A DNA stretch of 51,739 nt, the filler included, from Dimargaris cristalligena (Eukaryota): assembly GCA_003614675.1 (NCBI GenBank). It is 3 parts of 3 records of this genome, joined end to end, with 100 filler letters (N's around TTAATTAATTAA, not from the genome) between each part and the next. Parts side by side here need not be neighbours in the genome. Positions count along the whole stretch, not along the records: positions 17,301 to 34,482 come from ML002817.1; positions 34,583 to 51,739 come from ML002818.1; 1 more part is not named here. One strand, given 5' to 3'. Every line of letters begins with the position of its first letter. The stretch's first letter is position 1. Position numbers and translations under genes: made by a program. Shown here piece after piece: positions 24,174 to 48,440 of the stretch. The notes beneath the pieces were generated by a model, which was given only the letters and a program-made list of their open reading frames with translations, made no database searches and was not told the origin of the DNA.

Positions 24174-24608
24174 ATGAAGCCGTCTGTAGGATTATCCTTG
24201 GCCCTCGTGGGTCTATCGCTGGTTTTCGCCGTAAACGCATTACCCATCCCCGACGGAGAGGAGGGAGGAGACGCTACCCCCGCCGTCGTCATTCAAAGTT
24301 CAATGCCCGCCTCCGCCAACGGTGAAAACTTCATCCCTTTACAATTTGCCTCGGGCATGAGTCAGATGCAATTGGGGAGTTTGTTGGATGACGCGCACAT
24401 TGATGCGAATCAAATGACGAAACTTCTCGCGGACGCTGGCCTGGCCCCTTTGACGATACCGGACCTGAAAAAGTTCGCCGATGATAACAATACCAAAGTC
24501 CCCGCCCTGCTCGAAGAATTCCCGGCGGCTATGGTCCGCAAGAACTTGAGCGGTCCGGAGGTGTGGAAACTCATGGAGGAAATGAATAAGTCTCCCAAGG
24601 ACCTTTAG
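24174..24608 (+). CDS. Small secreted hypothetical protein, 144 aa, acidic
   Basis: Signal peptide MKPSVGLSLALVGLSLVFAVNA|LP. GC-rich coding-like composition within AT-rich flanks. No recognised domain. Confidence 0.7.
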   Translation: MKPSVGLSLALVGLSLVFAVNALPIPDGEEGGDATPAVVIQSSMPASANGENFIPLQFASGMSQMQLGSLLDDAHIDANQMTKLLADAGLAPLTIPDLKKFADDNNTKVPALLEEFPAAMVRKNLSGPEVWKLMEEMNKSPKDL

Positions 24609-25319
24609 CTTAATTAGATAAACGAGCCAGAGAGAGGATAACTATTTACTCAGTATAACCAAACTAAGGGTGTCATCGAGATGTCCGGTTTATATGAGCT
24701 CACAATTGGCCTTTCGGGCCTGGAATTTTGCTGGTTTCTTTAATGTTAGACACAGTGTTCTTTGCCCTGTCATATTGGTTCACCTAAATTTAAAATAAAT
24801 ATTAGATTAGTATCCTTAATACCATCGCAGTGAATCCCACGTGTTTTACAAACTGCCGCGATGCTCTCTAGCACAATAAACCAGCCGTTTCGTGGAAGAA
24901 CACATTTGCGTTTGCATTAGCGTGAAGGTGGCTAAAAACTGCATGCTACGCCTGAAAGCCTAGCCGAGATGACAACACCCCTCCTCCCTGGCTAGCTATT
25001 CAACTCCAGCCCCTCCTTACCTTTCCTTGCTTTTACATTTATAACTAGCTGGTCTTGCTGCATTTACCATTCCATTAGTAAGTATTGTTAATTTTAACTA
25101 GATATTCTTGTCTATACCGATTCCCAACTACCGCCGGAGCGAGGGTTGTCTTCATTACTTGCCCTCATTCAGCCCCATTCGTTAGCCGGATTAGGTTTCC
25201 GTTCGCGTACTTTGCATTTCCGACTCTATTATTCGGTGTCAGCCCCAGCCCTTTCCTTTGGTATTTTATTCCTTTACCCCCTCCTCTTTCCCCTCACAGT
25301 AGTCTCCCACTCTACCCCA

Positions 25320-25730
25320 ATGGCCAGTCGGTATTCCACGCGTCACAAGCGAAGGGCCGAAAGTAACGAGGCCTCCAAACCGCAGGACTCGCCGCTGGCC
25401 CAACGCCGGGGCACCATCCAACCCACCGAACTTAGTGTCGATAATGGGTCGTTCACGGACGCCCTGGCCCCCCAACTGGACCCGGCGGTGGCCCACCTGT
25501 TTCGCCATGACGACCGGGGGCGCGTTTTATGGTACGCGGCCCCTCCCGTGGCCGTGGCGAACCGTATGGCGTACCGTCCCGTACACTCCGCGGCCTACCT
25601 AAAGTTTCGGGCCACCGGTTCCGCTGATGCTACTGCTACGGGTCCCGGCTCCGACTCACCCGCTACGGCCAATTCAGCCACTGGCCCGGTCGCGCCTGGC
25701 AAGTCCATTAATGTCACCGATAATCACTAG
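25320..25730 (+). CDS. Small hypothetical protein (136 aa) with a motif resembling the C-terminal region of fungal Rsc1/Rsc2
   Basis: LDPAVAHLFRHDDRGRVLWYAAPP...PVHSAAYLKFR, with a basic N-terminus (RHKRR) and coding-like GC content. The family assignment is from memory of the motif, not a search. Confidence 0.6.
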   Translation: MASRYSTRHKRRAESNEASKPQDSPLAQRRGTIQPTELSVDNGSFTDALAPQLDPAVAHLFRHDDRGRVLWYAAPPVAVANRMAYRPVHSAAYLKFRATGSADATATGPGSDSPATANSATGPVAPGKSINVTDNH

Positions 25731-26731
25731 CTGTGGTGGTATTCACGCGAACGTGAATTGCCCAGGGTCGCTTGCTTTACAATACTACTGGGCAGGCTAG
25801 TAAGTAGCCTCGTCGGCTCGCTGGAATACTTTTGCAATGACGTATGTATATAAAATTTGTAGCTCCTCCATTCCTCGTGACTTGAATATGTGTTGCTATT
25901 AGGTCAGGCCAAATTGAGGTATATACACGTGGGTTAAAGTGGTTCCATTGTTCTCTTGCTGGACTCGAAGAGGGAGGAATATAGCCAACTAGCAACTGTG
26001 ACGGGCTTTCGGTGGATGATATTTGTAGCTTCGGTTAATAATTGAAGTTTTGGATTGATTGCATTGGTTAGTTGGGGTTTGATTATACCTTAGTTCCCTT
26101 CCCCCTCCCCTTTCGCAACTCATTTCCGTTGTATGCCAGTCTCACACTGGAAGATTATGCAAGATGGGGCTTGTACTTAGGCCGGCATTACTGAGCGATG
26201 GGCGGGCGAGGGTAGGTTTCTTTCATGAGGGCGAGTAGCTTATATCTTAAGGCCGGGTGTAGGGCGGCTATTCCAATAATTCTGGAAGAATTGGTGGGGG
26301 GGGTACTTTCGGGGCGATCGTTTAGTCTTTAACGATTATTTTAATGAAGGCGGATATCCATTCTCCCAACCATTAGCTAAGCCAGCAACAAAGTGCGCTG
26401 TCCGGCGATCCTAGCCATTGAGCAATACGGCTGGATAATACAATTCATGGACAGTCGGCCTGTCCTATTCTGCCATGCCTCAGACTTTATAAGGGATGGC
26501 CTTGCCGGCATCAATACGCCGATTAAACACATATCCTAGCACCGCATTCTATCATATTCATCATTGTATCGACTTTATCCCCCTTTCCAACCCCCGCCAT
26601 TTCTCTATCTATCGTTTAGCCCGCATTGGCTAACTTACCCCTCTATTTACATTTGCGTTAGCACTAGCACTGTCCCCCTCTAAACTTCATATAGCTTTAG
26701 TTCATTTATATCTTCAGGTTAAATCAATACG

Positions 26732-27184
26732 ATGCGATTTATTACTTCACTTTCTCTGGTTCTCTGTCTGGCCGCCTCGTTTCTTACACTAGCGTGCGCT
26801 ACTTCGACCCATTCCCGTGGCTCTTCCGCCATCCCTCCGCCTAGCCAATTAGTCCGTCGTTCACCGGCTGTCAAAAAGGGCGGCGCAGAGAATTACGGAC
26901 TAGCTCATCCGGATGCCAGGAAAACTATCAAAGCAAGGAGTGTAGAAAACCTCGTCAAAAACTACAAGGGTAATCCCCAAACAGATACCAAGAAGGCACC
27001 AGTCAATAATGGCGGGGCCAAGCCGACCCCGCCCTCCAGCAAACCCGCTGCAAACCGAGCCGCCGGAGGCTCGAACGTCGCTGCTGGTTCAACTAAGAAA
27101 GGTGGTACCCCTGCTAAGAAATCCTGGAGTAATCCGACTCGCGGGGAAATCCAGAAAGTAGCGGCCGGGGGGAGTATTCGTTAA
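26732..27184 (+). CDS. Small secreted basic hypothetical protein, 150 aa
   Basis: Signal peptide MRFITSLSLVLCLAASFLTLACA, a dibasic LVRR site, then a Lys/Gly/Ala/Pro-rich low-complexity region. Confidence 0.72.
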   Translation: MRFITSLSLVLCLAASFLTLACATSTHSRGSSAIPPPSQLVRRSPAVKKGGAENYGLAHPDARKTIKARSVENLVKNYKGNPQTDTKKAPVNNGGAKPTPPSSKPAANRAAGGSNVAAGSTKKGGTPAKKSWSNPTRGEIQKVAAGGSIR

Positions 27185-27863
27185 CCATGTGATTATATAC
27201 TACCTCTCAGGATGTAGTAGCACTCCAATATTAGGTTCAATCCGGCATTTTTTATTATCAGCATTACTATTATTCACCAGCGGGCGGTCTAGACTACTTG
27301 TTCCCTATTCACGTTCTCCTTCCCCCCTCACTTTGTATCTTGGCTTGTATCCACATTCATTTACTTCCAATAAACTATTTTCTGGCCACTCCAATTCACC
27401 GCTCTACCACACAATATTACGTTCACTAAACTTGTATAGGGGTCTTTAGAAGTGTATTGAAGTTTTCTCTGCTCCAAAGTACAGTGGCCCCTCTCCTAAC
27501 CCTTAACATTTGCGCCTAGACCCTTGTTAGTAGGGCTAGTATGCCTCAAATCACGGGACCCCATAAATCATCTCCTGGCCAATTCTGGCATTTCTATTAT
27601 ATGCGGGGTGCTTCAGTATTACCGATATTTTACCATACAGCTTTTCAGCCTGATTATGAAATTCTATTATAGAATTAAGTCCGGACTGGGTCATAAATTC
27701 ACTGCATTTCCCCTCGAGTCGGCTAAGCTAAGCTTTTGCTACATACACGCTATCTCGGATCTCTCCATTGGACACCTGGCCTCTCTCAACCGAACTGCAT
27801 TCGTCCATTACATTACAATTCTATGTTTTTTGTTTAATCGCATTCACAGCCCTCGCTTTCGAC

Positions 27864-29500
27864 ATGGCCACCACCTTCGTGGGCCGCAGCACCCTTTTAC
27901 CATGGCGTGCCCCGATCTTGTCCATGGGCCGTTCATTGACCACCACTGCTGTAACCCAGGGCCAGCGCTTGCCACGTACCACCAGTTTGAAGTACAGCCA
28001 ACCCAAAGACGCCTACCTGCTATCGGCCAAAGTGACCAAATTCATTAAACTCAACAAACTCGACGATGCCATTGCCCTAACCATGAACTCACCCGGCCGG
28101 CTTCAGTCACCGGTGGTTTGGAATTTACTGATATTCGCCTGTTCCGAAAAGGGCGCGCTGAATCGGGCGTTAAAATTATACAATCAGGTAAGTAGAAACC
28201 GGGGTATAATAATGATAATACTCTATGCTGGACCGGTTTGGCTGATGAGTGTACATTGCCAAGGTGTTTTTTGTTTTTGTATTGGTACGTATAACCCCCA
28301 CTGAAACTCAATTTACTGGGTAGAACTCCTCCCCCTCTGACCCTATTTGTGGGTTTTTGGGAATGCCTGTATCGCCCTAATTAATCCCGCTTTCTACTAT
28401 ACGGTCTGCTTTAATTTGCCCACTAGATCAAAAAACGGGGTCTTCGACCAGATTCCCATACCTACACTGCCCTCCTCCGCTGTTGCGCCCAGTCGCATTC
28501 CCCCCGTGCAGTAGCCGAGGCCGATAAAGTGTACGAGTACCTTCAAACTAACCAGACACCCAGTCTCATTCATTCAAACGCCATGCTACGGGTGTACGCC
28601 CGCCATGGTCGCACAGACGAGATGATTGAGTTTTACCGTACGATGCCCCCCTCGGGTAATCAAGCGCCCGACGAAGTGACTTACACAATTACGATGCAGG
28701 CCATGGCCCAACTCCAACCCCAGCCCCAATCATCGGCCGTTGAACCTACCGAAGCAGCGGGGTCTAATGCTGAGTCGAAAGGTAATGATAATATTAACGG
28801 TACTGGCGGTGATGCGCTGAATCCGGCAGTGCCAAACCGTAATCCCGGGCGCCCGGGATTCGCCGCTCCAGGGAAGCTCGCCCCGGATGTGGCGTTCGCC
28901 CGCATTCACCCCGTTTGGTTAGACCTGGTCATGGACCAGCAGAAACGGCTCATTATGAATCAGCACAATACGGCCCAAACCCCCCTAATTCGACCCGACC
29001 GGCACTTGGTGCACTTCTTCCTGCATATCGCGAGTCGGGTTCGCACGCCCGAGCACATTAGCCAGGCATTAACCGCAGTGGAACTTATGTTCGGGTTCCA
29101 GTACCGGCCCGATCGCCCGATTACGGACCAGGCCGGCCCGGCACTTGTTACTGGGTCATCATCATCATCATCCTCACCACCACCATCGTCATCGGAGTCG
29201 GAAGTGGTCGGTATCGCCCCAACGGCAGCCGAATCGTCGGTCCCGCAGGGCCTCTTCGCCGCCGGGTACGACTCCACCTGTCTGGATGGTAACATGTTGA
29301 ACCGGATACTGACCCTGTGCCTGAGCGGTCAGGAATACCGACGGGGATTGGCCTATGCCCACCAAACGATGGCTACCTTCCAGCCCACCATTGAGCTGGG
29401 TCTGTCCAATTTTTTCATGCTTACGGAACTCTTCCGTAAACAAACGGCCGAGGAAATTGGTCTGAATAAGCGGCCCCGGAGAGAAAAACGGGCCTCGTAA
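27864..29500 (+). CDS. Mitochondrial pentatricopeptide-repeat (PPR) protein, 2 exons: 27864-28187, 28427-29500; about 465 aa
   Basis: Presequence-like N-terminus. PPR motifs VVWNLLIFACSEKGALNRALKLYNQ|IKKRGLRPD, SHTYTALLRCCA, LIHSNAMLRVYARHGRTDEMIEFYRTM and PDEVTYTITMQAMA. The intron is GTAAGT...CTAG, phase 0. Confidence 0.85.
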
Positions 29501-30516
29501 AAAAGAATTGACCCAATCAATAAAGTAATTTGTAGGCGTGACGCTCGCATTATGCTAGTATTACACCACCTAATTGTAACGGTTCGTTCACTTGTTTTCA
29601 ATTATTAAGCTTATATAATACATTCGGAAGTCCAGTTGCTGAGGCAAACTTAACCAGATAAAAAAACGAACATACATGTTTCATCTTCAAATGGCGTTCA
29701 AAACTTTGCAACGCTTCAGCAAACGTCACCTCATCGGAAACATGCCAGCCGTAATTCATTATACTCCAGGGGGAGTATGCGGTAATGCGAAAGCTGAGAA
29801 ATCCATTTTTAGGATTTAGCATTGGTTATGATGGTTATCTACTCCTATACTGAACTAATGCCCACGCAGGTAGGCTTTCTGGCAGTATAGCACTGGAGTT
29901 TATCTTCTCTACCACTCATTAGTAGGGAACGCAGGTGGGGGGTGGGGTATAAATATAAGAACTTCTAAGTGCAGGCGTTAACCGGGGGTAAATGTATAGA
30001 GGCTTATTGGGATAAACCGGATATAGATTAACTAAGAAACACCGGGCCATAACCGGAAGAGGGGGGTATATATACATCGGGGCTGTCCGATAATAGTAAC
30101 GACGCTACCGGAAGGTACTTGCTGGTATCGGGGTTACTCATCCTTTTCCCATCAGCGAATTTAGATTAACGGTGAAAGTAAGGTAAAAGAGTCCTCCTGG
30201 TACTGGCTGGAGCGGGGTAGTTGGTTATCATGATACTATGCGTTGCCGCCATAGGAAGAGTGATAAGGCACTAATACAGTATACTGGCAACCGCCTAAGC
30301 AAGGGGTCCTTTGTGAATGATACGATTCGTCATGTGCAAAAATACTACTTTCAATTTATTAATATAAAGGATAGCTTTTGGCAAATGGCATTCTAAAATA
30401 AACAGCTATACTATGAACTAAAATAAGGTACATTGGGTACCTTTATAATAATGATACGGATCTGATAGCCGGCGGACCACATATTGTAGGGAAATATTGG
30501 AATTGTACGTGTTTGA

Positions 30517-30882
30517 TCATAAATCCTCGACCGTGGCCGAGCCCCATAGTAACATAACATCGGACATCGGTTCAATTACTATAAATGTTGGCTTTGGTTT
30601 TAGAAGAAGCTGGATACCTTCAGGTGTGTCGCGTGGGCTTCGGGGAAACACCCCCGGAAGTTGCTGGGGGTCGGTGAAGGATCCCTGGGAGCGTGGGGAG
30701 CCGAGTTGGGGGAGCCGGCGGGTCACGGCCTTGGCCGGAGTTATTTCCAAGCGCTCGGCGGCATGTCGGGTAAATTGAGGGTGAGGGTCGCGTGCGTCAA
30801 TCCTGGCCAAAAATGAACCCGGAAGAGCCAGACCGGTAGCCGCAAACCAAAAAACCGCAATATACGCACTAATTACTCTCAT
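30517..30882 (-). CDS. Small, probably secreted, hypothetical protein, 121 aa
   Basis: Signal-like MRVISAYIAVFWFAATGLA|LP and a dibasic VTRR site. A diverged paralogous fragment 1.7 kb away keeps the reading frame (one 3-nt indel). Confidence 0.6.
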   Translation of the reverse strand: MRVISAYIAVFWFAATGLALPGSFLARIDARDPHPQFTRHAAERLEITPAKAVTRRLPQLGSPRSQGSFTDPQQLPGVFPRSPRDTPEGIQLLLKPKPTFIVIEPMSDVMLLWGSATVEDL

Positions 30883-32218
30883 TTCGGGCAGAATGAAAAC
30901 TTCTTGGCGCGAGATGGGAGGGATATTCAACAAGAGCCGAGGAGTCACTGGTCGTCACGACGGAATTTAATAAATACCAAGTTAGATAGGGGATGAAACG
31001 TTGAAACGGGCTGAAGAAAAATAGTGATAGGGAAATTCATGTCTGGGACGATGGGGGGCAAGGGGAGGGATTAAATACGATGGTGACCGAATTCGAACCT
31101 CAACCTAATTGTGGGTTGATTAAGCCGCGCGATAAAGTCCGCGGAACATATATTATCCGCATCTAATGACGAACAAATCCCTAATAATATATTCCTATAC
31201 ACTTAAGATCAACTGTCAAAACCAAGTTTATCACGATCATCTGGCCTAGATGACCAACGGCGGCAATCAGTTGTACGAGCCCATACGTTGATGGCGTCTA
31301 AGTCCCTATTTCGAGACGCTCATTTAATGAGCAATATATTCCAGATTGCCGACGATTACCCTCATTTCTCTAGATCTCTCTCCAACATAATCATTGGATG
31401 TGCACGCAGTAAGTCATCCATCTCTTTTGTGCCATCTCATAGTGTCGCCGGCTGTATGGCCCAGTGAACATCGCTCAAACGGACCATGAAGGGGCAGGAG
31501 GTAATGTCCTTTACCCCAGATTGTATTACAGTGGGAATAAATAGCAGTTACCATGTCAAATTATTAGGAGGCCCCGGTGATTATGTATTTCTGCGTAGTG
31601 CTGGGCAAGGGGATAATGAAAATATTGGCTAGACTTCTCAGGGGCGGCCGATATTTAAAATATGAGCGAAAGTCGACCCATCCGTAATAGGGTTTTATGG
31701 AATATGCAAATCGGCTAATAGGCGGGGTATCAGTTTAAACCTATCACATTTCCTTCATCTAACGGATTTCTTATTATGCAATTTGGTGCAACCTCTCCCG
31801 TATTCTTTTAAACTATTTCAGGAAGACTCTGTTCTAAGCGTTCTACTTATAATGACAGTCCAAATAAGTCAGGAAATAGCATACCGTAGCCCAGTGGGAG
31901 TATTTATACACCGGGCCAGCACAAGGCTCGTCTGGGAATGGTGATATATAAATGGAGCCTTATTCTGGTAACCACAGATGCAAGGGGTCCGTTTGTAATG
32001 GTGCATATTATCTTGCACAAAAAGTGCCACTTTCATTTTTTTAATATAAAACATGCTATTTGAAAATTGGCCTTTCACAAGACCAACCAACTATAGTATG
32101 TGGCATAAAAAGATTCAAAAAAGTGGTTTATAATATAGTGGTTGGTCGGGTAGCCAATAGGTCAGTATATTATGGGGATATGATTATTCAGTCTATTGAG
32201 CAATTAAGGGTAGATAGC

Positions 32219-32403
32219 CCTAAGCTGTGCCCCATTGTAACATAGTATCAGGCATTGGTCCAGCTACTATAAGTGTTGGTTTTAATTTTAGAAGCTGGAT
32301 ATATGCAGGTGAGTTGCATGGGCATTGGGGGAACACTCCCAGGAGTCCCTGAAGATAGGTGGGGGATCCTTGAGAGTGTGGGATGGTGAGTTGGGGGAGC
32401 TGG
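32219..32403 (-). pseudogene. Truncated, CpG-erased paralogue of the 30517-30882 gene, cut off by a repeat insertion at 32404
   Basis: Aligns with about 30541-30718. Translates QLPQLTIPHSQGSPTYLQGLLGVFPQCPCNSPAYIQLLKLKPTLIVAGPMPDTMLQWGTA* versus RLPQLGSPRSQGSFTDPQQLPGVFPRSPRDTPEGIQLLLKPKPTFIVIEPMSDVMLLWGSA. Confidence 0.8.
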
Positions 32404-32683
32404 TATCACAGAGTAGTGGTGTCAAGCCATAAATAAAACAACAAAATAATATCAAAAGGGTAGGGTGGTTTCCCCAGGCAAACTGGTTTATTACTCTTTG
32501 AAAAATATAATAATAAATACATTTATTAAATAGTTTAAACTAGTATAGCATAATATATAAGATGCTTATTTGGGAGCTCAAAAGGTTGATCCTTAGCAGC
32601 CACAACTTAAAGTATATATTTAAAATAAATAACTGCAGAATATATATTTTATTATGTATAAAACCAAAGAATAAAATAAAACT
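32404..32683 (+). mobile_element. Repeat family A (LTR-like start T[G/A]TCACAG), copy 1
   Basis: 32404-32581 aligns with 51561-51739 (tcacagagt.gtggtgtcaagccataaata...aaaagggtagggtgg...cttatttgg.agctcaa). Sharp left boundary in both copies. The right boundary is taken as the start of family B. Confidence 0.75.
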
Positions 32684-33269
32684 TGTTGCCTGGGTTAACC
32701 ATTGTTAGTCCATCAAGAATCCCAAGGATAGGCTTCTAATGGTAGGTGGGGCTTAGGCTCAGCCAAGCAGGCTATTAGTATCAGGGTGGGTATGGTACTA
32801 ACCCATAAAGGCTAAGTGTTGATAATACAAGGGATGTGCAGCAGGTACACTTACTAGTCAGTATGGGGGGTGAGTGTATATAGAATTTATTAGGGTAAAC
32901 TATGGGGGGTAAGAATAAGCTGAGGAATCTAACTAGTCCCAGTGGGGGCCCAGTTATTTATATGTGGGGACAGCTCTTAATGAGAGGTCCTGAGGGGAAT
33001 ACTACTAAGGCTAGGTAGGGATAAGTAAGGAGTCTGGCCAGATGGCTTTGTATCTGGAAGACTCTTATGGGAACCAGAAGAGTTATTGGATCAGCTGGCT
33101 GAGTGTTGTGTGCAAAGCATTGGAGAGCTGGTCAGAGAGGGGTTATACAATAAAGGGAAGTCCTACAGTACCGGGGGTGACTATGGGAGGTGTTAATATA
33201 GTGCTATAAGGTGGAATAGAAATGGACAATCATTAAGTCTGTATTTAGGTAGGATTAAGAGGGCCAACA
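32684..33269 (-). mobile_element. Repeat family B: about 586-bp LTR-like unit with TGTTG...CAACA termini
   Basis: Begins tgttgcc and ends ggccaaca. The left 101 bp match 34031-34131 inverted (83/101, gap-free). About 32970-33269 matches 51267-51558 inverted. No target-site duplication found. Confidence 0.7.
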
Positions 33270-34011
33270 TATAATTAGGCTTTAATTTTAATAGAAAGTT
33301 TTTAGATGGAAACAGAGCTCATAACTTGTTAGAGATGTATTCTAGATAGAAATCACAAGCTAATAAAATATATCAAAACAAAAATAAGAGAGAAAAGCCA
33401 CAAAGAGATTCAGGAGAACCTCTTCACTTGGCTTTATTGAGTAATGGCTAAATAGTTGATAATAGAATATAGATAATGTCAGGTGAGTAAGATAATTATA
33501 AACATAACCCTAGTTATAAGGTGTCCATTTTCTAACAATATAATCATAGATAGAGTATAGTCCCAGGTATTAAGACAGATTAATCAGAGTAAAGGATTTG
33601 GAGGGGCAGGATAAATGAATTTCCAATAGCAACATCAACAGTGGCCTGGAAGTATGCATATAAAGGTGGGCTATGTGTAAATAATACTAAGTCAATTCTA
33701 GCCACATAGCCAGGTTCTTATCCTCCAGAGTGGTTCTACTCTGGGTATGGGTATTAGTCTATCTATTTGGTACTGCAGTTGGTTCAGCATTAACCCTCCT
33801 TTAGTATATAGATAGATATATAGATAATAATAGTAATAGTAACAGTCATTAGGTGACAGTTCCAATCAATTATGTACAGAGGAGAGTTTGGGATCAGGTG
33901 ACCAGAAATTCTAATACTAAGGATTTATATTTAGGAGTTAACATCATACATTTTTACAGAATATAGTAGCTTTATAATATAAATATATACTCACCCCCCT
34001 CTATAAAATAA

Positions 34012-34131
34012 TTAGTACTATATCCTGTAGCTGATACTAGTAACCTACTTGGCCAAGCCTAAGCCCTGCCTGCTATTAGAAGCCTATTCTCAGGACTCTT
34101 GATGGACTAAGAGTGGTTAACCTGGGTAACA
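34012..34131 (+). mobile_element. Fragment of the family B LTR-like unit (end ...GGGTAACA), in opposite orientation to 32684-33269
   Basis: Inverted match to 32684-32801. Followed by gc-tagtatcttagc, a 9/12 match to the tRNA-Met primer-binding site TGGTATCAGAGC (weak). Confidence 0.7.
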
Positions 34132-34715
34132 GCTAGTATCTTAGCATTACTTATAGGACAGGGTATCAGGGTAACATTGGTAGGGGTAGCTGGCTCTATT
34201 TATTAAACCATTAGGTGGCATTTTCATAATTTAGGTGATAGAAATTGCCATTTTTTCTCTACCACCCCTACTCTAAGCAACATTGGGGAGTCAGGTAATA
34301 AATTTTCAGAGGATACTGGGATGGTTGATTCTACAAAAAAATAGCACCATGGGGAATATAATTTTAATTTGGGTATTGGACAAGGAGAGTGGCAATCACG
34401 TCAGTCTATGTATTTTAGCGGGTTTCACCAATTAATTTGATTTTCATTGTGGATCCCCCAAGTCCTGTTAGCTATGTACTAANNNNNNNNNNNNNNNNNN
34501 NNNNNNNNNNNNNNNNNNNNNNNNNNTTAATTAATTAANNNNNNNNNNNNNNNNNNNNNNNNNNNNNNNNNNNNNNNNNNNNATCAATGGGGGGGGGGGG
34601 GGGGGGGGGGGTAATGCGGTCGCTCCAATTTTGTGATATTATTGTAGAAGTGATCGACTAATCCAGGGCCATTTCTATTTTTAAGCCCGTCATCTAAGCC
34701 GGAGATCCCGCTTAC

Positions 34716-35800
34716 CTTGAGGATATGGGCGATGGACCCATCGTGAGTACCTGCATTATTGGTATGGAATGTCCGATAGATTAGGTGTCACGGTAGTCGA
34801 CGTTAAATCACATTCAAAAAACATCGATCCCGCGTAGGTATATACCAGCAATCCAGCAAATCGATAAAAACCGATTATCAAAGCGGGTGGGGGAGGAGAG
34901 GGGGGGGCAAACATCCGGTTCCTTATTATTATTATTTAGACTATGAACTGACTTACATTCGGCATCAACGATGACCTTGTCGTAAAGTTGGGTTCCGCAT
35001 TGGGTATTGCCAAATCGAAGTAATCGGGGTGCATAGAAAGGTTTAAGGGAAACGGGATCTTCCCTTGAAGAGGACTGTCCCCTTTCAGTTGGGGCATCCG
35101 ATAGGGGCTGTGGCAGCGAGGAGGGGATCCGCGCTAATTCCTTTGGGTTATCCCAGTTGGCCGGCGGGGCTGGACGATCAAAAGAGGTTCCATCGTGGGC
35201 AAACAGTCGTACATTAAAATGCCGGTATTTTTTCAACAACGACCGGCAGGTGGCCAGTCGTAATGGGGAAATATCCACGCCGGTGACGGTGCCCTGGCCC
35301 CTCCTGGGCTTCTTCAACTCGGGTTCCCCGTCGGAATCGTCACCGTCGCCGACCCCGGTTAACAAGTCCGCAACCATACACAGTTTGGCCCCGGGTGCAC
35401 AGCATATATCCAGGACATGGTCGTCGGGTTCCAAGTCAAGGGCCAAAACGGCCAGCCCTGACGTGACGTCGATACCGTATAGCTGGCCACTTTGGTAGCC
35501 CGGGCATTGCGACAGCCGGATAGGGCCTGGGGAAGGGGGGAGCCGCCAGAAATCGGGTACCCCTGGAACGGGTTCCGCGGACACTCCCAAATGGAGGTGA
35601 ATGTCAGCCAAGAGTTGCTCTCGCTCAGAGGACGAAAGCCGGCGTCCTAGGCGGAAATAACGGGGAAGGTCGAGGCATTGATCGTAAAGCGCAATGGGAA
35701 TGCCATTGTCGGCTAGGAATTTGACAAAGCTGGGGGGGAAGCGGTCGGCCTTGCGAGAGGCTACGGAAGTCATGGCCACTGTTGATTGATGGGGCAGCAT
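34716..35800 (-). CDS. NOL1/NOP2/Sun (RsmB/NSUN) family SAM-dependent RNA m5C methyltransferase, partial: exons 35800-34957 and 34750-34716; the 3' end probably lies in the gap at 34483-34582
   Basis: YGIDVTSGLAVLALDLEPDDHVLDICCAPGAK (motif I), VTGVDIS, and YDKVIVDAEC|THDGSIAHILK (motif IV spliced across GTAAGT...GCAG). The next donor is gtaagc at 34715. Confidence 0.85.
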
Positions 35801-37792
35801 TCAGTACATGAACCCGTTAACTCAGGAAGACATACAAGCGGTGGGGAAGGTGTAACAATCCCATTTTTATTGAAAAGGCCTTAGTGTGGAATGAGGAACC
35901 AACGGGGATGAGCTAAACCGCCAGACCAAGTGAGACCCTCCACGAGTGGTGAAATCTATATTCCCCAGCCACCCGTACCAGGTAACCTCCTTTTCCCTAA
36001 GCATTCCCTAACTGCGAACCTGCGGTGAAAGGGACCTGGTGCTACAGAGAAGCAAGAGCCCCCCCACAACCGAGCTGCCTCGGGTACATGGACACTGCTA
36101 TTACACTTTGACCATTCATTAGTGGTTAATGTCGACGGTAGGATTTAATATCCTTTAGGTTTTCCCTGGCTAGCTTTGCCTTAAAGAGTACATTTTTCAC
36201 CCTGGCCCTTCCAGTGTGGTGGTTGCAAATTACAATCGGAGTCAACAATTAGATTATTGGTAGTCTATTTATCTACAGCCCTCATTGATACTGTTTTAAC
36301 CCACGGGCTTGGTGTTTTGTATAACAACCTTCTTCTGTTCTAATACAACCATATGCATAAACGATTATAGTCGCGACTGATCATCATTGTATTCTCAAAA
36401 CCCGCTGGTATATATTACAGCTTCCTCGGAATTCCAAAGCCAAGCACCCGTTCTAACGTCTCACATTCATTTTTTTAAACGATTATTTTTGCGAAAACTT
36501 TTATAATTTAAAATTCATCATGGTTGACTTTTTGGAGTGTATCGTAAATCTCAATAGCCAATACTTCGCATTTCTAACATCGCCTTTAATACGAAGAACC
36601 AGAACTTCCTATGCCCTACTCTTGACATCCCAAATTCACCGGAGGGCGGTGCTGCCGATGTCATCACTGACCTAATCGACGGGAAAGGGGAGCGTGTCAT
36701 GTACATTACTTACGTCTTCCACTATCGACTCATCATTGGTGGTATCCTCTGAATGATGTGCTATGCTAGCAAAAGGGCAACCCGCATTTTTCACGGGAAA
36801 AGTGAAATTAGAGGCTTACCTGGCTAGCGCTTTAATGGCTACAATGGACGACCTAAGCTCTGCCAAAGAAATTGATAGTTGAAGTAGACCTACGCTTTGC
36901 ATCCTCGGGTTAAGTCGCAGGGCCAGCCCCAGACGCCTGCCGAATGGGCAAAGAAACTGCTCGGTTAAAAAGAAATGCGGAGCAATCACATCCCTTCCAA
37001 AAATTATATTTCCTATATATCCCGGCGGGATAACCACGCCCTTACAACTCAAATAAATGTCAATTCGAGACGCCCATACTTCAGAAGCACCCTACTTTTT
37101 ATACCCTTTATGGTATATTTTTTTAAACAATGGGATTTATTCTTGTTTTCAAATTGTTGTGCTTAGTATATTTAGATTAGCAACTGTCAGTTTATGAGCT
37201 CCAGCTAATGTTGGTACCATGTGCCCTTCAATGCCTATTTGACAAATTCCAGATACCAATTATGTAATGTGATGAATAGTTCTAAACTGTGAGAATAGTG
37301 ACAAGGAGCCAAGCGGCCAAGAAGCACTTTTTTATATACATGCGAGCATCCAAAGCGTATACATAATGCTTTGGTAAGTGTGTTGAGATACAAGTGGCAC
37401 AGGCCTGTCGGAATTGATAGTAGGGGGGGAGTCGAGCATTTTTACAGTAAACCCGCCTACTAGATTGGCCAATTACTTATTTAGATTTAAAAATGAAAGC
37501 GGAAGGGGCTATAATGCCTGGGCTTCTCCAGTCTGTGGTCTGACCTCCTGAAGGGGGCAATCCGATATATTATTTCATCCATCTGCTAGTTGGCATTACC
37601 GATTTCCCGCGTTATTTTTAATAGGACTCACAGTAATTTGGGTAAGCTAAAGGGGTGAATTTAGTGGAATGGGTTCCACTACAATAACCATAACCATAAC
37701 CCTAACCCGCATTTCCTTTTTTTTCCTGTACCGTTTATTTTGTTTATTAATTCTACATTTCGTGTTTGTTACTGACATTTATTGTTGTTGCC

Positions 37793-39005
37793 ATGTCACT
37801 CGTCCCGGATTACGACTCGGATAGCTGCTCCGATTCCGATGCCACCTGCCCATCACCTAAGCGAGATGCTTCGCCCGGCCTTCAGCCATTACTGGCCTCA
37901 GCCACTGCTGCGCCCAGATTTCCAAGGGAATTGCCAGTGTCAATAAAACCCAACCAAGGCCCAGCGCGTGAATACTCCCAGCCGCAATCCCCAGAGTCTG
38001 CTGACGAGCGAGAGACACTTGGTCTCGCGAGTCCCCACAAACGAGCCAAACTCGAGCAGCCCACCACCGGGGGCCTCTCCAACTTACTTTCCTTACTACC
38101 CGCGCCCGTTCGTCGGCCAGCGAAGCAGCCTCCATCGGACCTATCCGACATGAGTCCAGTAGGCGGATCTATAGACAGCTCACCCCTTTTCAAGTCCCGG
38201 ACCCTATCTAGTGTTATAGCTTCGACAGCCCCTACCTCTACCCAGCCCCAACCAACTTCACCCATAGTTGGCCCGCAGTTACCCGCAAACCCCTATACTC
38301 TACCCACTGAACAGTTGCCGACATTGCCAAATGCACCCATGGCAGGGCCACCAAGGCCCGATGTACCGCCCTCGACGGACATGTCCTTTGCTGACCCTTA
38401 CGCTGCTTCCGCGACGGCCAGCTCAGAAGGCTACTACTATGACCCCAGCTATTACCAGTATTATTACGGATACGATTATTCACAGGCCCCATCAGACCCC
38501 TCGGCTGCCCCAACCACTAAGGCCAATGATTTGGATTCCGCCGCGGTAAGTATTCGATTCATCTCGCAGTATTTCTGCATAATTCGAGAGCCCATCCTTA
38601 ACTGCATTCTAAATCGATTTAGCCCCTTCGCCTGCATACCTACCCCAATATCTCCATACTGACCTTTCGCTTTTCATATTCTCTCTCCCTTGGTATACCT
38701 CACTCTAGCTACGGCGCCTGGGTGGCCGCCGAGCCCTAGCAGAGGGTCTCAAATTCCAAGAAGTTGCCCAGTCGGCCCAATTGGTTCAACCAGGCCACCG
38801 CCCGACTGCGCAATTCACGCCAGCCCAGCCGTCCGCTGCTCCCGTGCGGGCCCCGGATCATCTTAAACCCACCCAAGGCCAGAAGCGCAAAAATAACATT
38901 ATGAGTTTAGCTTTTGAATCCATCGAGAACGAGGGCAAGGTGAAGGAATTGTATGCTTCGGGCCGGCAATCCAAACGCGAGACCCAGGCTAAATACGGAT
39001 TTTAA
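37793..39005 (+). CDS. PRCC: PRCC-like proline-rich protein (spliceosome-associated / MAD2B-interacting family), 2 exons: 37793-38545, 38709-39005; about 349 aa
   Basis: N-terminal MSLVPDYDSD, LLSLLPAP, a Pro-rich middle, and the diagnostic C-terminus KPTQGQKRKNNIMSLAF...KRETQAKYGF. Phase-0 GTAAGT...CTAG intron. Confidence 0.82.
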
Positions 39006-39785
39006 ATGATACAGTAGAATTGGTACAGTATAAAATAAAGCCTAAATGGCGTTTTTATTCAATTTAAACGCTCCGAAGATATTTGTCCTTTACCCTGTAT
39101 ACCGTTATTGGGATTTTGGTTAACACCCCTGATTTTGTACCTGGCCCTGCCATTTGCCCCAACTACCACTACCCCCACCTAATCTTGTAAATATAATGTC
39201 GATTGCTAATGGCTCAGGGCATGTTTTATTACATTGGGCCATTTAAAGGATTTGTGATAGGGCATAGTTTAGAGAAACCTAGTGTTGGTATAGCGCGAAT
39301 GGGTAAGCGTTGTTTAGGCCCTTTAATATTTAGCCGATTGCGGCTGTTTATTGGGAAAATGTTTCCTTGATTTTTTAGTCATAACCGGGGGGATGGGAGC
39401 AGTCTAATGCGGATGACGTGATGAGAGAGGGAGCTGATGTAATAATTATCAGGGTTGATCGGCCATTTGGTTATCTGATACCAAGCCCTACTCTGGACGC
39501 AGGCCAGTTTGGACCCTTTGTTCTCCGAATTTCTTCTAGGCTATACCTCTTTTCTTAACAAGTTAACCCAAGTGGAGTGCCTGCCATACATAGTCCTAGA
39601 ATAAGCGTTTACCCTTGTCCTTCTCTTTCTCAATGCTGTTGGTTTTTACTAGTAGCTAAGTCCATTCGCCGAATTAAGCACATTACCTCAACGCAATTGC
39701 CCATACCATAGAAGCGCGACACAACCCTCACTTCCTCAATTACCCAAGTTCCTTTATTGCACCCCAGTCACGTTGCATTGTTGCC

Positions 39786-41259
39786 ATGGTTTCTAAAACT
39801 AGGTCATTCACCTTGCCGGACGGCGTCCTTGACTTTATTGCGGGAAGTGTGGCCGGTGCAGGACAAACCGCCGTGGGCCAGCCATTCGACACTGTCAAGG
39901 TATGCTACTTTACTCAGACCCTCTAGAAAACGCCGACTCCCCCCTTACTCCTACCTAGTACCTCAAGGTACTCAAACCTTCCCCCCCTTCCTCGCTTGGC
40001 CTTTCGTACCTGGCCCTATACCTGCCGGGGTATGCTTAACTACGCCATTGTCTAACCGAGTAAGTCAATGCCGCTCACACACACTACTGTCAATTAGACG
40101 CGACTTCAAATTGAAGGGCAGTCGAGCCGGTTCAAAGGCCCCTTAGACTGTGTTTTACAAACCATTCGGAAAGAAGGTGTACTCAGTCTCTATAAAGGTA
40201 CGTCTCACTATCAATGGATCTGGTGGGTGGTTACTTCGTTCACTTTGCGAAAAATAAATGTTGGTGTGCCTTTAATTAACCCTCAAACATGGGACGGCCA
40301 ATTGGCAATGTATGTGAATGGCTTTATATATGTTTTCTAGGAATGTTATCCCCGCTTCTCGGGATATCCGCTGTCAACGCCGTGTTGTTCGCCACCTATT
40401 CCCGACTTAAAGAACTTCAAAAGTCAAGCGCGTCCGATCAACTTAAGCTCTATCAAATTGCCCTGGCCGGGGGCGGTGCAGGTAGGACCGACCATTACTG
40501 AATTACACCGTTTTCTACGCGAGCCCAGTCACCATAAATATTGACCGGGGGCTCTTTAGGGCTCACCCTTGAATACCCAATCCAGCGACTGTTGCATACT
40601 AACCAGCACCCATCACTTGAATCGAAATCACATCAATTTTATTGGCACCGCCCTGGGGGGGGGGGTTACCAGGGGCTGCCAATAGTATCATTATCTCACC
40701 CGTGGAGCTACTCAAGATCCGCCTCCAAGGGCAGTACGGCTCCAGAAGCTCGAACATCCCTACTGGTACCATATCCACACCCATCCAACCATATTATCGA
40801 GGCCCATCCCAGCTCGCCCGGGACTTGTGTCGCTCCCAAGGTCTCCGCCGCGGCCTTTTTCGGGGGTTTTGGGCTACTCTATTCCGCGAAATTCCGGCTA
40901 ATATGGGATTTTATGCAGGGTTCGAAGCAGCCAAGCGCTGGTTGGCGAACGATCAGTACGATGCTAACTCGTTACCCGTGAGCCGCTTGTTACTAGCGGG
41001 GGCCTGCGGGGGTATCAGCTATTGGACCGTATGCTACCCGATGGATATCATCAAATCGCGGGTTCAGTTCTCCACTAGCCCGTTGCGGCGGCCGCTAAGT
41101 TACATTGCCGATACGGCCCGACAGATCTACCGGGAAGGGGGACTCCGGGCGTTTACTAGGGGCTTAACCCCCACCCTTCTCCGAAGTTTGCCTGCCGCGG
41201 CGACGACCTTCTCTTTGTATGAGCTTTCCTCTAATTATTTAAAACAGGGGTTTTCGTAG
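39786..41259 (+). CDS. Mitochondrial carrier (SLC25; carnitine/basic amino acid carrier group, Ymc1/Crc1-like), 4 exons: 39786-39899, 40098-40197, 40341-40481, 40673-41259; 313 aa
   Basis: Three PxD/ExxKxR signatures: QPFDTVK|TRLQ, SPVELLKIRLQ and YPMDIIKSRVQ. Contact motifs REIP and RSLP. Exons sum to 942 nt and introns are GT-AG. Confidence 0.9.
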
Positions 41260-41606
41260 ATTGTCCGTGTTATACAAGAGATAATTATATCGACGGTCGG
41301 AATGATTGCCCTAGTTTATTCGGAATTATCGGCTAAGATATATCTTCAGCTAGAAATAGCCTAAACCTATCCCTGATAAAACCAACTCCGGGATTACAGG
41401 GGCTTGAGCCTCGGCGACCCCACTCTGCACCTATAAAAAAACAAGTAAGCTGTATTATTAACCGTTTATTGGTAGTAGAAATGACATGCCCCAGTAAAGG
41501 TGGCTGGTGTAATTGATGAGCAAGAGGGAAATGTTAAGTTGAGAGCCATCCCCATAGATCCGAGGAATTGTCTCATCCAAGAGCCCGAGTGCACAGTCCA
41601 GATTGC

Positions 41607-42574
41607 TTATTTGTTGACCTTGTTAAAGTACTCCTGGGAGTCATTAGGGGTGGGCTTGATAGTATCGGCCCCCTTGGTCCAGTTAGCGGGGCACACTTCA
41701 CCGTGCTCGGCGTGGAATTGCAGGGCCTCGACCAAACGGAGGGTTTCATCCACGGAGCGCCCGATGGGCAAATCGTTCACATGGGCGATGCGGACATTAC
41801 CCGTGGGGTCAATGATGAACAAACCGCGCAGCGCCACCCCGGCCCCTTTTAAGAGCACCCCGTAGTCGCGGGCGATAGTTTTGGTGATATCGGAAACCAA
41901 GGGGATCTGCATGGGGCCGAGACCGCCCCGGGCCCGCGGCAGCTGGGTCCACGCCAGGTGCGCGAATTCGCTATCGACCGATACGCCCACCACTTGGGTG
42001 TTCAGGCGTTCAAAGTCGGCGGCCCGGTCACTGAAGGCAACCAACTCGGTGGGACACACAAAGGTAAAGTCCAGGGGGTAGAAGACCATCACGACGTACT
42101 TGCCCTGGTAGTCAGCCAGCGACAAGCTCTTGATCTCGCCATCAACAACGGCTTGGCTGGTCCAGGCAGGGGCGGTACTCTATCGGTAGAGACAGTACAA
42201 TGGGTAGAGAGATTAGTGGGCCAAACGGTGCGGAAAAGAAGCGTCCTATTCCACCGAGCACGGCCAGGGCCAAATTGCCAGTCTTCTAAAGAGTTAGATT
42301 TGAGTTAAGAACGCGTGGGTAGAATATTCCTGCCTATTAAGGCCGGAGTACTGTTACCGAAATAACTAATATATAGCTGGGAAAGTCGTTGCCGTAAACT
42401 TACTTGAACGAGCGATCTTTTCCAGGCCGGGCTGGTGGCGAAACCACGACTGAGAAGGCCGGACTGGCTGGACGACCATACAGCACGCTGGGTAATGCTT
42501 TGGCGGGTCAGCGAAGTAGAGGGGGTGGCAACACGACCAGCGACGCGGGCAACTGAGTTCAGGATAGAGCGCAT
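41607..42574 (-). CDS. Typical 2-Cys peroxiredoxin (AhpC/Prx1 family) with a mitochondrial presequence, 2 exons: 42574-42404, 42179-41607; 247 aa
   Basis: [13 protein letters not shown] (peroxidatic Cys), GEVCPANW (resolving Cys), GGLG and YF motifs. Exon 1 is Arg/Ser-rich with no acidic residues and contains RGFA. Confidence 0.92.
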
Positions 42575-45336
42575 TTTGAATTGAGCGGGCTGGAAATCAA
42601 ACAGGTAATTAAAGGAGTAGGTGAATGTAAAGAAGCCTCTGGGTTAGAAGGGTGATTCAGAAATGGGAAAGTCAATTACAGGTCGTCTCAACCGTGAAAA
42701 CTTACCCATACCTTGGCTTGAGTGACTGGTGATGGCGACCTGAATCCCAAGTGTGGGAAGCCTCATAATCTGATAGTAGTGACTAGAAAGGAGGTCTCCA
42801 CCAATCATACAGTCGTGGGATAAACGGAGGAGTAAATTTACCCAAATATATTTAATACGCAGAAAGCCCACCAAAGCATTGCATTATCAGAATTGTAAGT
42901 GTGTCTTGATACAGCAGTACTTGGTCAATATGGCATTATTCTAATCAATTGACATGTCCCAGCCCAACGATTAAAGCCAATCCAATGTGTAGACTTGGCT
43001 GCTTTATAATCATGCCCGCTTATCGGGGGATACGCACATGTATAAATGGTATCACCCTGGCCAAATCAGACAACACTCTGACCGCTGCTTACTCCCCTTT
43101 TACAGCAACCATAATTGGATTTAATGGTCCGAACTATTCCCGTAAGCGGTGCTTAAATCTTCGAGTAAAACGGGTCGTGGGGGCTCTATTGCCACCGGAC
43201 AGGTGGGACAGACCCACCGCCCAACTCCCCAAGACATTGCCAGACCCCGCCAATGGAAACACGCTGCTGAGTCTTCGCTCTATCAACACCCCTCCACCAG
43301 ACAAACAGTGAACAGCTACTGCCCCAATAAGCCAGTTGAGAGAGTTAGGGCTATAGGATGCAAATTGATTTATGCCGCCCCGGGTCTTTTATACTAGCAG
43401 TCTTGGCTCTACTCAACCTGCCGACTATACCAACCCATACCTTGCACCAAATTTCTTGTCAACGGGTTAAAAAGTCTCCCTTTACCAACCAGCTTTAGTC
43501 TTTGTATTGGCCATCACCAGGTTCGCTAACTTTTTGAGACAGTTGGCGCCCTGGTACTCTATATATACTTATGTTTAACCTAACCAGCGTACAACGAATC
43601 CTTTTTAAAAGGAAAAATGATACACCTACAGTCGTAACAAAAAGGAAAGCCCTCGTCAGTGGGGAATTAACCCCCAGTCTTCCGCGTAACAGATGGAGAT
43701 ACTCACCACTATACGACTGAAGGTTTCATCCCGAGATGCCAACTTGCTGTATCCACGGGGAGGCTATGTGTCTCATTGGGACGAAGCCTTGGGGTCTAAG
43801 ACCTTTCCCTCACCCGAAATACTTATTTACCATGACGGTTCATATCAATATCAATAAAGTCTAGCCGATACTGCCGAAGGTTTCTTGAAATAATATATTT
43901 AATACAATGTATACAGTCCAGCTAAAAGTAAAAGATGCGGCTTTTCTCGAGCCCTATCGATTCCAAGACTTTTTTTTTGGGGGGGGCAATTTGGTTGAAC
44001 CAACCCTACGAGGTGGAAGTCACTTCAATACCCATTAGTTATAGTATTCGGTACAGCCCCACTGCTCTGAAGCGCCGAGTAACTGCTATTAGCCAGCTAT
44101 TTGTATATTTCTCGCCACATTAGTGAATTAAACCCTTATATCCTCAAATTCGAATCATACCCGTCAATTTGATAATCGGCCATTGAAAGGCCATCTCTTA
44201 GTTAGTATGGATGAAAACCAACGAATTCGTATGATTTTAGATGCTGTATGGGGAAATAGACGAGACATTTATGTTTAACTAGCAAAACCAGCCACATTCA
44301 CTGGATTACTCACTATATATCCTAATTTATTCTCTAACATATCCATTATTTTAGCCCAATAGGAAACATTGGCAGATACAGGTATGTATTCAATTACAAC
44401 GCAACGTGCGTGGATATATCCATGGATTAGCCGGGATTTCGGACAGGATTGGAGACTGGACTGCACTCTTTTTTAGCAGCATGTCGAAGTTTAGCTCTTT
44501 ATCGAAATACCAAAGCGGCAAGTAAGTTGGCACTTGGGGTAACTGAGGTTGTTTTATTGTGGAGTATCCAACGAAAAAAGGCCAGCAAAAGTAGACTCAA
44601 GGCAGGAGCAGCTATTAAACGGAGTGGGATGCGGCCTTTGCCTTGCATTGGTGGTACACTTTATCGGCCCAGGCTTTCAAAATCATTAGTAATAAATTAA
44701 AATTAAACCGGTAAACTAGTGGAACAGGGAAGGGAGAGTAGAGTCACCGAAAATTGTCTTTCAGTTTTGGACTTTCCTCAATCAGCGAACGGGTTGGGTA
44801 ACCCACCCCTTGTCCTCTGATTTAAGAATCCCGGCCCTCTCCCCCCTTTTACTACCGGCCCCTTGCCTCTTCCATATCCCCTCCCTTTATATTGCCATAT
44901 CGGTTCAAGAGGCACAAGGGCCGACGAAACGCGAATTCATTGTATAACAGGGACCGTCCCAAAGTAGACGGTGGCTTTATTCTCATTTGAAAGCACAGTG
45001 AACCGGCTGAGGGTTTACCCTACCTGCTCTCTTTATATAATATAAAACCAACACATGTAAATTGAATAATTTAATGAAGGAGGTACGTGTAGGCGTGCCG
45101 TACTATCCAAAAAAAATCCACTGGACCCCGACTCTAATGCCTAGACCTTGTCCAGGTGGCTGGCTTGGTTGGAAGACCCTGGCCCTTAGACAGTGGGATA
45201 AATATATTAAGTATTTGAATCCAAAGGGATTGAATCTATATGATATGTGTAACAAAATATTAAGGGTGAAATTTAGCTGGTGAGCCCATTTTTTCCTCGC
45301 TGGCTCAAATCTATTGAACACAGCCTCCCCTTTCCC

Positions 45337-45344
45337 TATAAATA
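45337..45344 (+). promoter_or_regulatory. TATA box of the secreted-peptide gene at 45512
   Basis: TATAAATA about 170 nt upstream of the ATG, in a C-rich context and followed by a pyrimidine-rich leader. Confidence 0.5.
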
Positions 45345-45511
45345 CCCTACCGCCCACCCCCTTCTCTGATCAAAACCATCACCATCCTTCTCTCTCCCAC
45401 TTCACCCCACCATCCCCTGTAGCTTTACAGTCTTTCTACCCTACCTAACCAAGGAACTTGTCAATTACTCGTCCTTCTTCCACCCCACTCTCTCCCTCCT
45501 TCACCCTCACT

Positions 45512-45820
45512 ATGAAGCTTCTGCCATCCCTCGCCCTCGTCCTGGCCGCCATTGGTACCGTGTCCATGGTCCACGCCAACCCCGCCACTACCGAAGACAG
45601 TACCGGCCACCAGCCCCATCTGCAGAAGCGCTGGTTCCGCTCCGGTCTGACCAGGGCTAGTGCTGGTTTGGCCGGTGCTGCCGCGGGCACAGCCGTCCTC
45701 CCGGTGGTTGGTACCGTCATTGGTGGAATTGGCGGTCTGTACGGTGGTGACAAGTTGGTCAAGGGTTATCGTCAGTGGCGTGACAAGCGAAAGGCCGCCA
45801 AAGCCGCCGGCCAGCAGTAG
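45512..45820 (+). CDS. Small secreted prepropeptide (102 aa): signal peptide, propeptide, KR site, then a 62-aa cationic glycine-zipper peptide
   Basis: MKLLPSLALVLAAIGTVSMVHA|NPATTEDSTGHQPHLQKR|WFRSGLTRASAGLAGAAAGTAVLPVVGTVIGGIGGLYGGDKLVKGYRQWRDKRKAAKAAGQQ. Strong C-ending codon bias and an upstream TATA box. Confidence 0.8.
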   Translation: MKLLPSLALVLAAIGTVSMVHANPATTEDSTGHQPHLQKRWFRSGLTRASAGLAGAAAGTAVLPVVGTVIGGIGGLYGGDKLVKGYRQWRDKRKAAKAAGQQ

Positions 45821-48189: not shown

Positions 48190-48223
<34 letters not shown>

Positions 48224-48440
48224 ACGCGGTGGTAATATGGGGCGGGGATTCCATTACTAAACTGGGATGAATATCTGTTCGCATGAGGAAAAATAACGGA
48301 GTGGCACGTCGATGGTGGCCTCTGGCTAAAGAAGACTTCAGTGGGATTGATCCACCTTGTTACTACCCAAAGCCAAAACGACCTATACATAGGCTGTAAA
48401 TGTGACTTCCATACCACCGTTAAATTGGAAGGTAGTTCGG

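Follow-up and report, generated by a model that had tools for sequence, protein, structure and literature searches.

The window analysed here is the whole stretch of 51,739 nucleotides from Dimargaris cristalligena (GenBank assembly GCA_003614675.1), and the subject of the analysis is a set of short blocks within it in which CpG dinucleotides are almost absent. The host is an early-diverging fungus of the Dimargaritales (Kickxellomycotina) and not an ascomycete, the placement on which a first-pass annotation, made from the sequence alone, had let its reading depend. The window is made up of three separate contigs (1–17200, 17301–34482, and 34583–51739) joined by two linkers of the form N44-TTAATTAATTAA-N44 (17201–17300 and 34483–34582), so that features facing each other across a linker are neighbours only by construction. 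The whole window contained 2150 CpGs, only two of which remained in the 3832 bp of the two main blocks, B2 and B3, taken together. The depleted stretches were as follows:

32148–34398, no strand: CpG-free domain B2, with 1 CpG (33172) in 2251 bp, a CpG observed/expected ratio (o/e) of 0.013, and a G+C content (GC) of 0.376
50159–51739, no strand: CpG-free domain B3, with 1 CpG (51433) in 1581 bp, o/e 0.017
16615–16961, no strand: weaker CpG-free stretch B1, with 0 CpG in 347 bp

The first-pass annotation had counted a single CpG in 32221–34380 and another in 50161–51739, and both counts held, with the full CpG-poor spans being slightly longer, as listed above. Across the window outside the blocks the CpG o/e was 0.81. 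Genes had also been described as CpG-rich, and 500-bp windows that were GC-rich and mostly coding indeed gave an o/e of 0.89–0.93. In 22 control windows of 1 kb with GC ≤ 0.44, the CpG o/e had a mean of 0.76, a standard deviation of 0.12, and a minimum of 0.54. Unique AT-rich DNA was therefore not equally depleted; equal depletion was an outcome that the annotation had named as contrary to its reading, and it did not arise. The Poisson probability at the control density was 1e-22 for B2, 7e-18 for B3, and 1.5e-4 for B1, the last before allowing for the scan. The CpG-free signal is real, strong, and sharply bounded. Each depleted stretch was located at or near a contig end or the window end: B1 lay approximately 240 bp before the end of the first contig, and B3 reached the end of the window. 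Repeats are the usual break points of assemblies.

Repeats were identified by sensitive BLAST of sub-regions and pairwise alignment, and assembled contigs of four public runs from two studies were placed on 30200–34482 at ≥80% likeness. Read depth thus describes repeat status for 30200–34482, and within B3 repeat status was shown for 51267–51739 by homology to B2. The following elements were found in the blocks:

32148–32395, no strand: left flank within B2, at single-copy depth, with 0 CpG in 248 bp (P 3e-4)
32396–32581, plus strand: repeat Y, 78% identical to 51553–51739, with raised depth
32684–33188, plus strand: high-copy, apparently non-coding repeat unit starting TGTTGCC
32684–32784, plus strand: left arm of an inverted pair and the most abundant segment
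32979–33269, plus strand: repeat X, 69% identical to the reverse complement of 51267–51552, with 7 TG/CA doublets
34031–34131, minus strand: right arm of the inverted pair, with a family boundary at 34131 beyond which the flanks differ among copies
34132–34398, no strand: right flank within B2, low-copy, with 0 CpG in 267 bp (P 1e-3)
51267–51552, minus strand: second copy of repeat X
51553–51739, plus strand: second copy of repeat Y

Depth was at the single-copy level (37–174) over 30200–32344 in the four runs, with a modest rise at 31630–31915, and the summed depth reached 1.4e5–4e5 at both arms of the inverted pair (bins 32631–32773 and 34061–34203), where a single place, 32719, was covered by 86–106 separate contigs per run. 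The summed contig depth of one family was ~800–7,400x the single-copy depth, a figure that gives the order of magnitude only, since summed depth is not copy number. Loose contig ends clustered just beyond 32684 and 34131, and the flanks there were unrelated to one another (agreement of 0.39–0.46 in the rows of runs X1 and X3); 32684 and 34131 are the true termini of a high-copy family starting TGTTRCC. The depth in run X1 decreased inward from the termini (178k, 55k, 31k, 10k, and 0.7k). In two runs, one contig each joined 33188 back to 32684, which suggests a repeat unit of ~505 bp. The inverted pair could also be aligned over a longer span, with 32672–32784 being 80% identical to the reverse complement of 34031–34143. 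Visual inspection of 32684/34131 and of 32684/33188 revealed no target-site duplication. A Pfam search at the cut-off gave no family in the 19 stop-free open reading frames (ORFs; 50–89 aa) of the two blocks, and a 36-letter degenerate pattern of the high-copy arm gave 0 matches in metagenome contigs. The block repeats thus appear to be non-coding, and they are without a class assignment. A 14-mer of the same arm matched prokaryote contigs by chance only, in unrelated bacteria and archaea, and was not used.

Contamination or an assembly artefact was considered and rejected. Contigs of three runs (2.9–15.4 kb, from both studies) matched 30200–32735 with 0–3 differences and ran from the gene-side DNA into the beginning of the block, while the piece from the fourth run extended the other way. 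An artefact is unlikely because contigs of the two studies agree with the window.

The CpG loss overshot the high-copy part (32396–34131) by approximately 250 bp on each side. The domain therefore consisted of repeats plus short flanks, with genes and unique intergenic DNA being spared. The annotation had described the loss as restricted to repeats; this was only partly borne out, because the CpG-free domain also took in approximately 250 bp of single- or low-copy DNA to the left and to the right.

The left edge of B2 cuts through a diverged local duplication, and the two copies allowed the loss to be polarised:

30280–30718, plus strand: copy A, at single-copy depth, CpG-rich, serving as the unmutated comparator
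31961–32403, plus strand: copy B, a diverged direct duplicate of A, with CpGs up to 32147 and none after

The copies lie approximately 1.7 kb apart and are 68–77% identical. In the last 175 aligned columns, which contained 41 differences, all ten CpGs of A were lost in B (6 as TG, 3 as CA, and 1 as AG), and B had no CpG of its own. TG or CA was thus the replacement in nine of the ten. Along B the outcomes followed the order CA, TG, TG, CA, TG, CA, AG, TG, TG, TG. Because TG and CA were interleaved, the changes were not strand-coordinated and both strands were affected, contrary to the strand-coordinated C-to-T change for which the annotation had proposed a test. The sequence context of the lost CpGs (5 TCG, 3 CCG, and 2 GCG) gave no readable preference, as all were lost. 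Outside CpG, 12 transitions led from G/C in A to A/T in B and 11 led in the reverse direction, and the ratio of transitions to transversions was 23:8, which gives a local baseline of ~3:1. Other C-to-T changes were not in excess in the copy from which every CpG had gone. As a separate observation, the 3' part of A (30540–30718) carries its 10 CpGs in 175 bp of single-copy DNA in which no ORF family is recognisable, and may be a promoter-like island; Pfam at the cut-off gave no family in the 2 stop-free ORFs of copy A.

Comparison of repeat copies showed that the loss took place after copying. The inverted pair, 32684–32784 against the reverse complement of 34031–34131, was confirmed as a gap-free alignment of 101 bp; transitions made up 17 of the 18 differences, which included 4 TG/CA doublets and 4 changes of TG or CA versus TA; the corresponding control, GT or AC versus AT, numbered 3. 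With the 8 doublet transitions set aside, transitions and transversions in the inverted pair stood at 11:4, the same as the baseline. Across the three CpG-free pairs there were 12 TG/CA doublets (Y 1, X 7, and the inverted pair 4) and 0 control GT/AC doublets. CpGs were therefore present in the ancestral copies, and each copy then lost them on its own.

The annotation had further proposed that non-CpG transitions were confined to the repeats and pointed to a process resembling repeat-induced point mutation (RIP). In its classical form, this reading supposes that CpA-to-TpA mutation by RIP, or non-CpG methylation followed by deamination, acted on the repeats in addition to CpG decay. Among the ten strand-symmetrised dinucleotide classes, only CpG was far outside the control range, whereas TA, AT, GC, AC, GA, and TG/CA were within it in both blocks (TG/CA, 0.97 in B2 and 1.15 in B3 versus 1.00 ± 0.08 in controls; TpA, 1.27 and 1.01 versus 1.04 ± 0.11). 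The ratio (CpA+TpG)/(ApC+GpT) was 1.14–1.43 in the blocks and 1.11 elsewhere, so the supposed RIP substrate was not depleted. A TpA/ApT ratio of 1.18 in B2, compared with 0.94 outside the blocks, favours a non-CpG component, but the same ratio was 1.00 in B3 and 0.94 in B1, and TpA was thus raised in B2 only. Repeat pair Y likewise favours it, with 9 changes of TG or CA versus TA against 2 controls; pair X showed the reverse (5 versus 9), and over the three pairs the totals were 18 and 14, close to the 1.1–1.4 ratio of the dinucleotides themselves. Together with the balance of 12 versus 11 between copies A and B, these figures place the non-CpG transitions at background, an outcome that the annotation itself had tied to simple CpG decay.

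Two further comparisons supplied the remaining points on this side. At 24 listed places between 32719 and 33943, where the window differed from nearly all copies (among the best-supported 40 of 327, not a random sample), non-CpG changes from G/C to A/T numbered 11, compared with 5 in reverse and 5 transversions. The 11, which were private to the window copy, consisted of 5 CpA-to-TpA and 6 CpT-to-TpT changes and so count in favour of a non-CpG process. An 11:5 ratio is also approximately the usual AT-biased mutation spectrum in DNA of 62% A+T. Over all listed places in the four runs, 169–188 transitions were found versus 41–53 transversions, as expected once CpG-derived changes are counted. 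At the right-hand end (34103–34482), the covering contig differed from the window at 10–13 letters in three runs. The 13 listed differences in 34153–34427 comprised 12 transitions and 1 transversion, and the window had A or T in 10 of the 12. In these three runs the differing contig was the sole one listed over the region, and the fourth run was the same as the window; the two versions are ~97% identical, and the second is a paralogue of near-identical sequence or else reflects variation between strains. The other contig restored a CpG at 34349, 34403, and 34427 (the latter two beyond the flank), and one further TG/CA doublet was present.

CpG loss in B2 was thus specific, local, in situ, and two-stranded, in a domain made up largely of repeats. 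The blocks probably represent the long-term decay, by deamination of 5-methylcytosine (5mC), of repeats methylated at CG, which is an ordinary and known process. Old non-coding repeats, together with ~250 bp of adjoining unique DNA, would have been kept CG-methylated over a long period, with methylation spreading into the flanks over roughly one or two nucleosomes. Slow deamination on either strand would then have turned the methylated CpGs into TpG or CpA where they stood, to the point of near-complete loss, and genes and ordinary intergenic DNA would have remained unmethylated and kept their CpGs. From the sequence pattern we infer that the 5mC may have been placed by a CG methyltransferase of the DNMT1 or DNMT5 type. 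The annotation's more conventional suggestion, that methylated repeats lose CpG through deamination of 5mC, fits every test run: depletion was specific to CpG, replacement by TpG or CpA was independent in each copy, the non-CpG spectrum was that of the background, and the loss was confined to repeats and their edges. The spectrum result is based on small numbers, and one low-copy pair was transition-rich.

The amount of loss was also compared with simple decay. CpG decay in mammals runs at a ~9-fold rate. The non-CpG divergence between A and B was ~9% per lineage, for which a ~9-fold CpG rate predicts ~18% CpG survival; by this arithmetic the loss of all ten CpGs has P ~0.14. The older repeats have diverged by ~30%, at which a survival of a few per cent is predicted, and 1–2% was seen. 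The loss rate therefore fits a ~9-fold CpG decay and no burst is needed.

Several observations weigh against decay of methylated repeats. The 12:1 excess of transitions in 34153–34427, with A or T mostly on the side of the window, and the 11 versus 5 asymmetry at the 24 listed places both lean the other way. In B2, TG+CA was not raised (0.97) and TpA was high (1.27), so CpG decay has left no visible excess of its products there. An o/e of 0.01–0.02 is more extreme than the partial CpG signatures of basidiomycete transposons, which involve 10–40% of transposon copies according to Amselem et al. 2015 (PMC4352252). In extracts of two papers, 5mC is described as scarce overall in the Zoopagomycota (PMC11258239) and, in a 2026 review, as near-undetectable in early-diverging fungi (PMC13297926).

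The blocks nevertheless have close counterparts elsewhere. They resemble the CpG decay of transposons attributed to DNMT1/Masc2/DNMT5-type methylation in being specific to CpG, in having both TG and CA products, and in affecting repeats and their edges while genes are spared. Amselem et al. found that transposons carry CpG-only C-to-T changes in Microbotryum, Melampsora, and Puccinia, three basidiomycetes in which a Masc2-like Dnmt1 is present and RID is absent (PMC4352252). According to Lax et al. 2024, nearly all 5mC of Phycomyces lies in repeats, as it does in Linderina pennispora (PMC11258239). Linderina and Dimargaris belong to the same subphylum. A preprint on CDCA7-HELLS reports CDCA7F in Coemansia and Linderina (Kickxellales) and DNMT1 in almost all CDCA7-bearing species (10.1101/2023.01.30.526367). 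Dimargaris differs from the basidiomycete, Linderina, and Phycomyces cases in that the host is a dimargaritalean mycoparasite, the erosion is almost complete, and methylation is deduced from sequence. For the Dimargaritales, a literature search that did not cover supplementary tables found no report of 5mC, of DNMTs, or of CpG decay.

A second counterpart is the gradual CpG loss of old, methylated Alu and L1 repeats in vertebrates, which likewise leaves TG/CA doublets between copies. Methylated vertebrate repeats lose CpG at ~10x the background transition rate. Unlike vertebrates, in which the whole genome is depleted except for CpG islands, Dimargaris shows only short depleted islands of repeats, with an o/e of 0.81 elsewhere.

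RIP of Neurospora and other Ascomycota resembles the blocks in that C-to-T and G-to-A changes are concentrated in repeats and spill into adjacent unique DNA. The blocks differ in having neither a CpA preference nor a depletion of CpA+TpG, in the sparing of a duplicate, in the interleaving of the strands, and in a host outside the Ascomycota. The mutation of both duplicates that is expected under RIP was not found (A has 10 CpGs, B 0), although at 68–77% identity the copies may be too diverged for recognition. The hallmarks of RIP used here are general knowledge. They are also touched on in the abstracts of two papers (PMC12543289 and PMC4352252).

A different route to the same pattern would be a RIP-like enzymatic deamination aimed at CpG itself, acting in bursts on repeats and leaking into the flanks; deamination of this kind has been proposed for TCG sites in some basidiomycete transposons. 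The near-total removal of CpG and the spread of the loss into single-copy flanks would both suit such an enzyme, as would the low-copy pair at the right-hand end, which despite ~97% identity already differs at 3 CpG sites and one TG/CA doublet among the 13 listed differences. Amselem et al., moreover, read CpG-biased C-to-T change in transposons as a RIP-like defence tied to a Masc2-type Dnmt1 (PMC4352252). We regard this explanation as unlikely: the loss rate is compatible with gradual decay, the strands are interleaved within 175 bp, the diverged duplicate A only 1.7 kb away is untouched, and CpGs persist in a ~150-bp family represented six times in the window. Badet and Croll 2025, as abstracted, confine RIP-like signatures to the ascomycetes (PMC12543289).

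A bolder version would credit D. cristalligena with an unusually efficient CG-directed repeat defence, clearing all CpGs out of repeats and ~250 bp of flank by active deamination or by very dense methylation and perhaps sparing CCGGG, with the top repeat family perhaps now CpG-less, unseen by the defence, and still spreading. The most abundant family had a summed depth of ~10^3x single-copy and many copies at least 99% alike. We give this version quite a small chance.

A further possibility is that the repeats were CpG-poor from the start. This origin, through a CpG-free master copy or an element from a CpG-poor genome, would dispense with any local mutational process; it draws on the contigs at least 99% alike to the window's CpG-free copy, which numbered 156–190 of 1455–2231 per run and indicate that recent copies were probably CpG-free already when made. 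As the sole cause it is ruled out by the TG/CA doublets, all 12 of which record CpGs in ancestral copies and independent decay, and by the single-copy flank DNA, which lost 10 of 10 CpGs relative to its duplicate; in addition, contigs of three runs join the block to the single-copy DNA beside it, and that DNA shares a contig of the window with genes. As an account of the blocks it is very improbable, while for the youngest copies it probably holds. Classical RIP or non-CpG methylation added to CpG decay is highly improbable on the spectra given above.

The best reading is therefore that the Dimargaris blocks are a new lineage example of a known process, CpG decay of methylated repeats, and not a new defence system or mutational mechanism; the poorly characterised repeat-directed mutational defence proposed in the first-pass annotation gives way to simple CpG decay, which the pattern fits. 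Near-complete loss of CpG from repeats may then serve as a cheap sign, readable from sequence, of long-acting CG methylation of repeats in the Dimargaritales. It would also allow domains of former methylation, including their spread into unique DNA, to be mapped simply in fragmentary assemblies. Extracts of PMC13297926 and PMC11258239 portray early-diverging fungi, including the Zoopagomycota, as 5mC-poor and dominated by N6-methyladenine (6mA), and against this picture in reviews D. cristalligena is marked as worth a methylome.

The few CpGs that survived were considered separately. As the annotation had noted, the residual CpGs at 33172, 51433, and 16614 all lie within CCGGG. This context accounts for 94 of the 2150 CpGs in the window (4.4%), and its occurrence at 2 of 2 sites in the clear blocks has p = 0.002, a post hoc value with n = 2. 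Repeat X has CCAGG in its second copy at the position corresponding to 33172, and the stretch 16369–17200, which is wider than B1, has two further CpGs (16962 and 17059) in contexts other than CCGGG. Survival at CCGGG could reflect slower deamination in G+C-rich flanks, as known from mammalian work, or chance.

The dispersed family of ~150 bp that retained CpGs is represented by six copies:

46849–46997, 47536–47691, 31660–31815, 44245–44342, 17301–17367, and 16889–16935 (inverted): ~150-bp repeat copies

Several positions with CG versus TG or CA varied among these copies, and 31660–31815 was the richest in CpG.

The base composition of the blocks had two other peculiarities. The plus strand of B2 showed a strong skew of G over C (528 G and 318 C). 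AG/CT was somewhat enriched (1.22 in B2 and 1.12 in B3 versus 0.92 ± 0.08 in controls), as was CC/GG (1.67 and 1.55 versus 1.35 ± 0.10). The skew in B2 and both enrichments may be the repeats' own composition.

The following features were located elsewhere in the window:

34483–34582, no strand: artificial linker, N44-TTAATTAATTAA-N44, with its twin at 17201–17300
34814–35800, minus strand: ORF of 328 aa, matching the RsmB/F (NOL1/NOP2/Sun) methyltransferase family over a short length
43652–43723, minus strand: tRNA (Rfam, 31.8 bits)

The tRNA was the single match in the window to Rfam at the gathering threshold, and the CpG-free blocks were without any. The family matched by ORF 34814–35800 is of the RNA m5C type and not a DNA methyltransferase; this ORF and the CpG-free block B2 are on opposite sides of the linker, and their closeness in the window is a product of the joining. 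Two ORFs of the window were 100% identical to NCBI proteins of D. cristalligena, and the next-best matches came from other Dimargaritales at 52–60% identity. The window genes were of eukaryote type, including helix-loop-helix, Pho80-type cyclin, mitochondrial carrier, and PPR proteins, and an M16 peptidase was also encoded.

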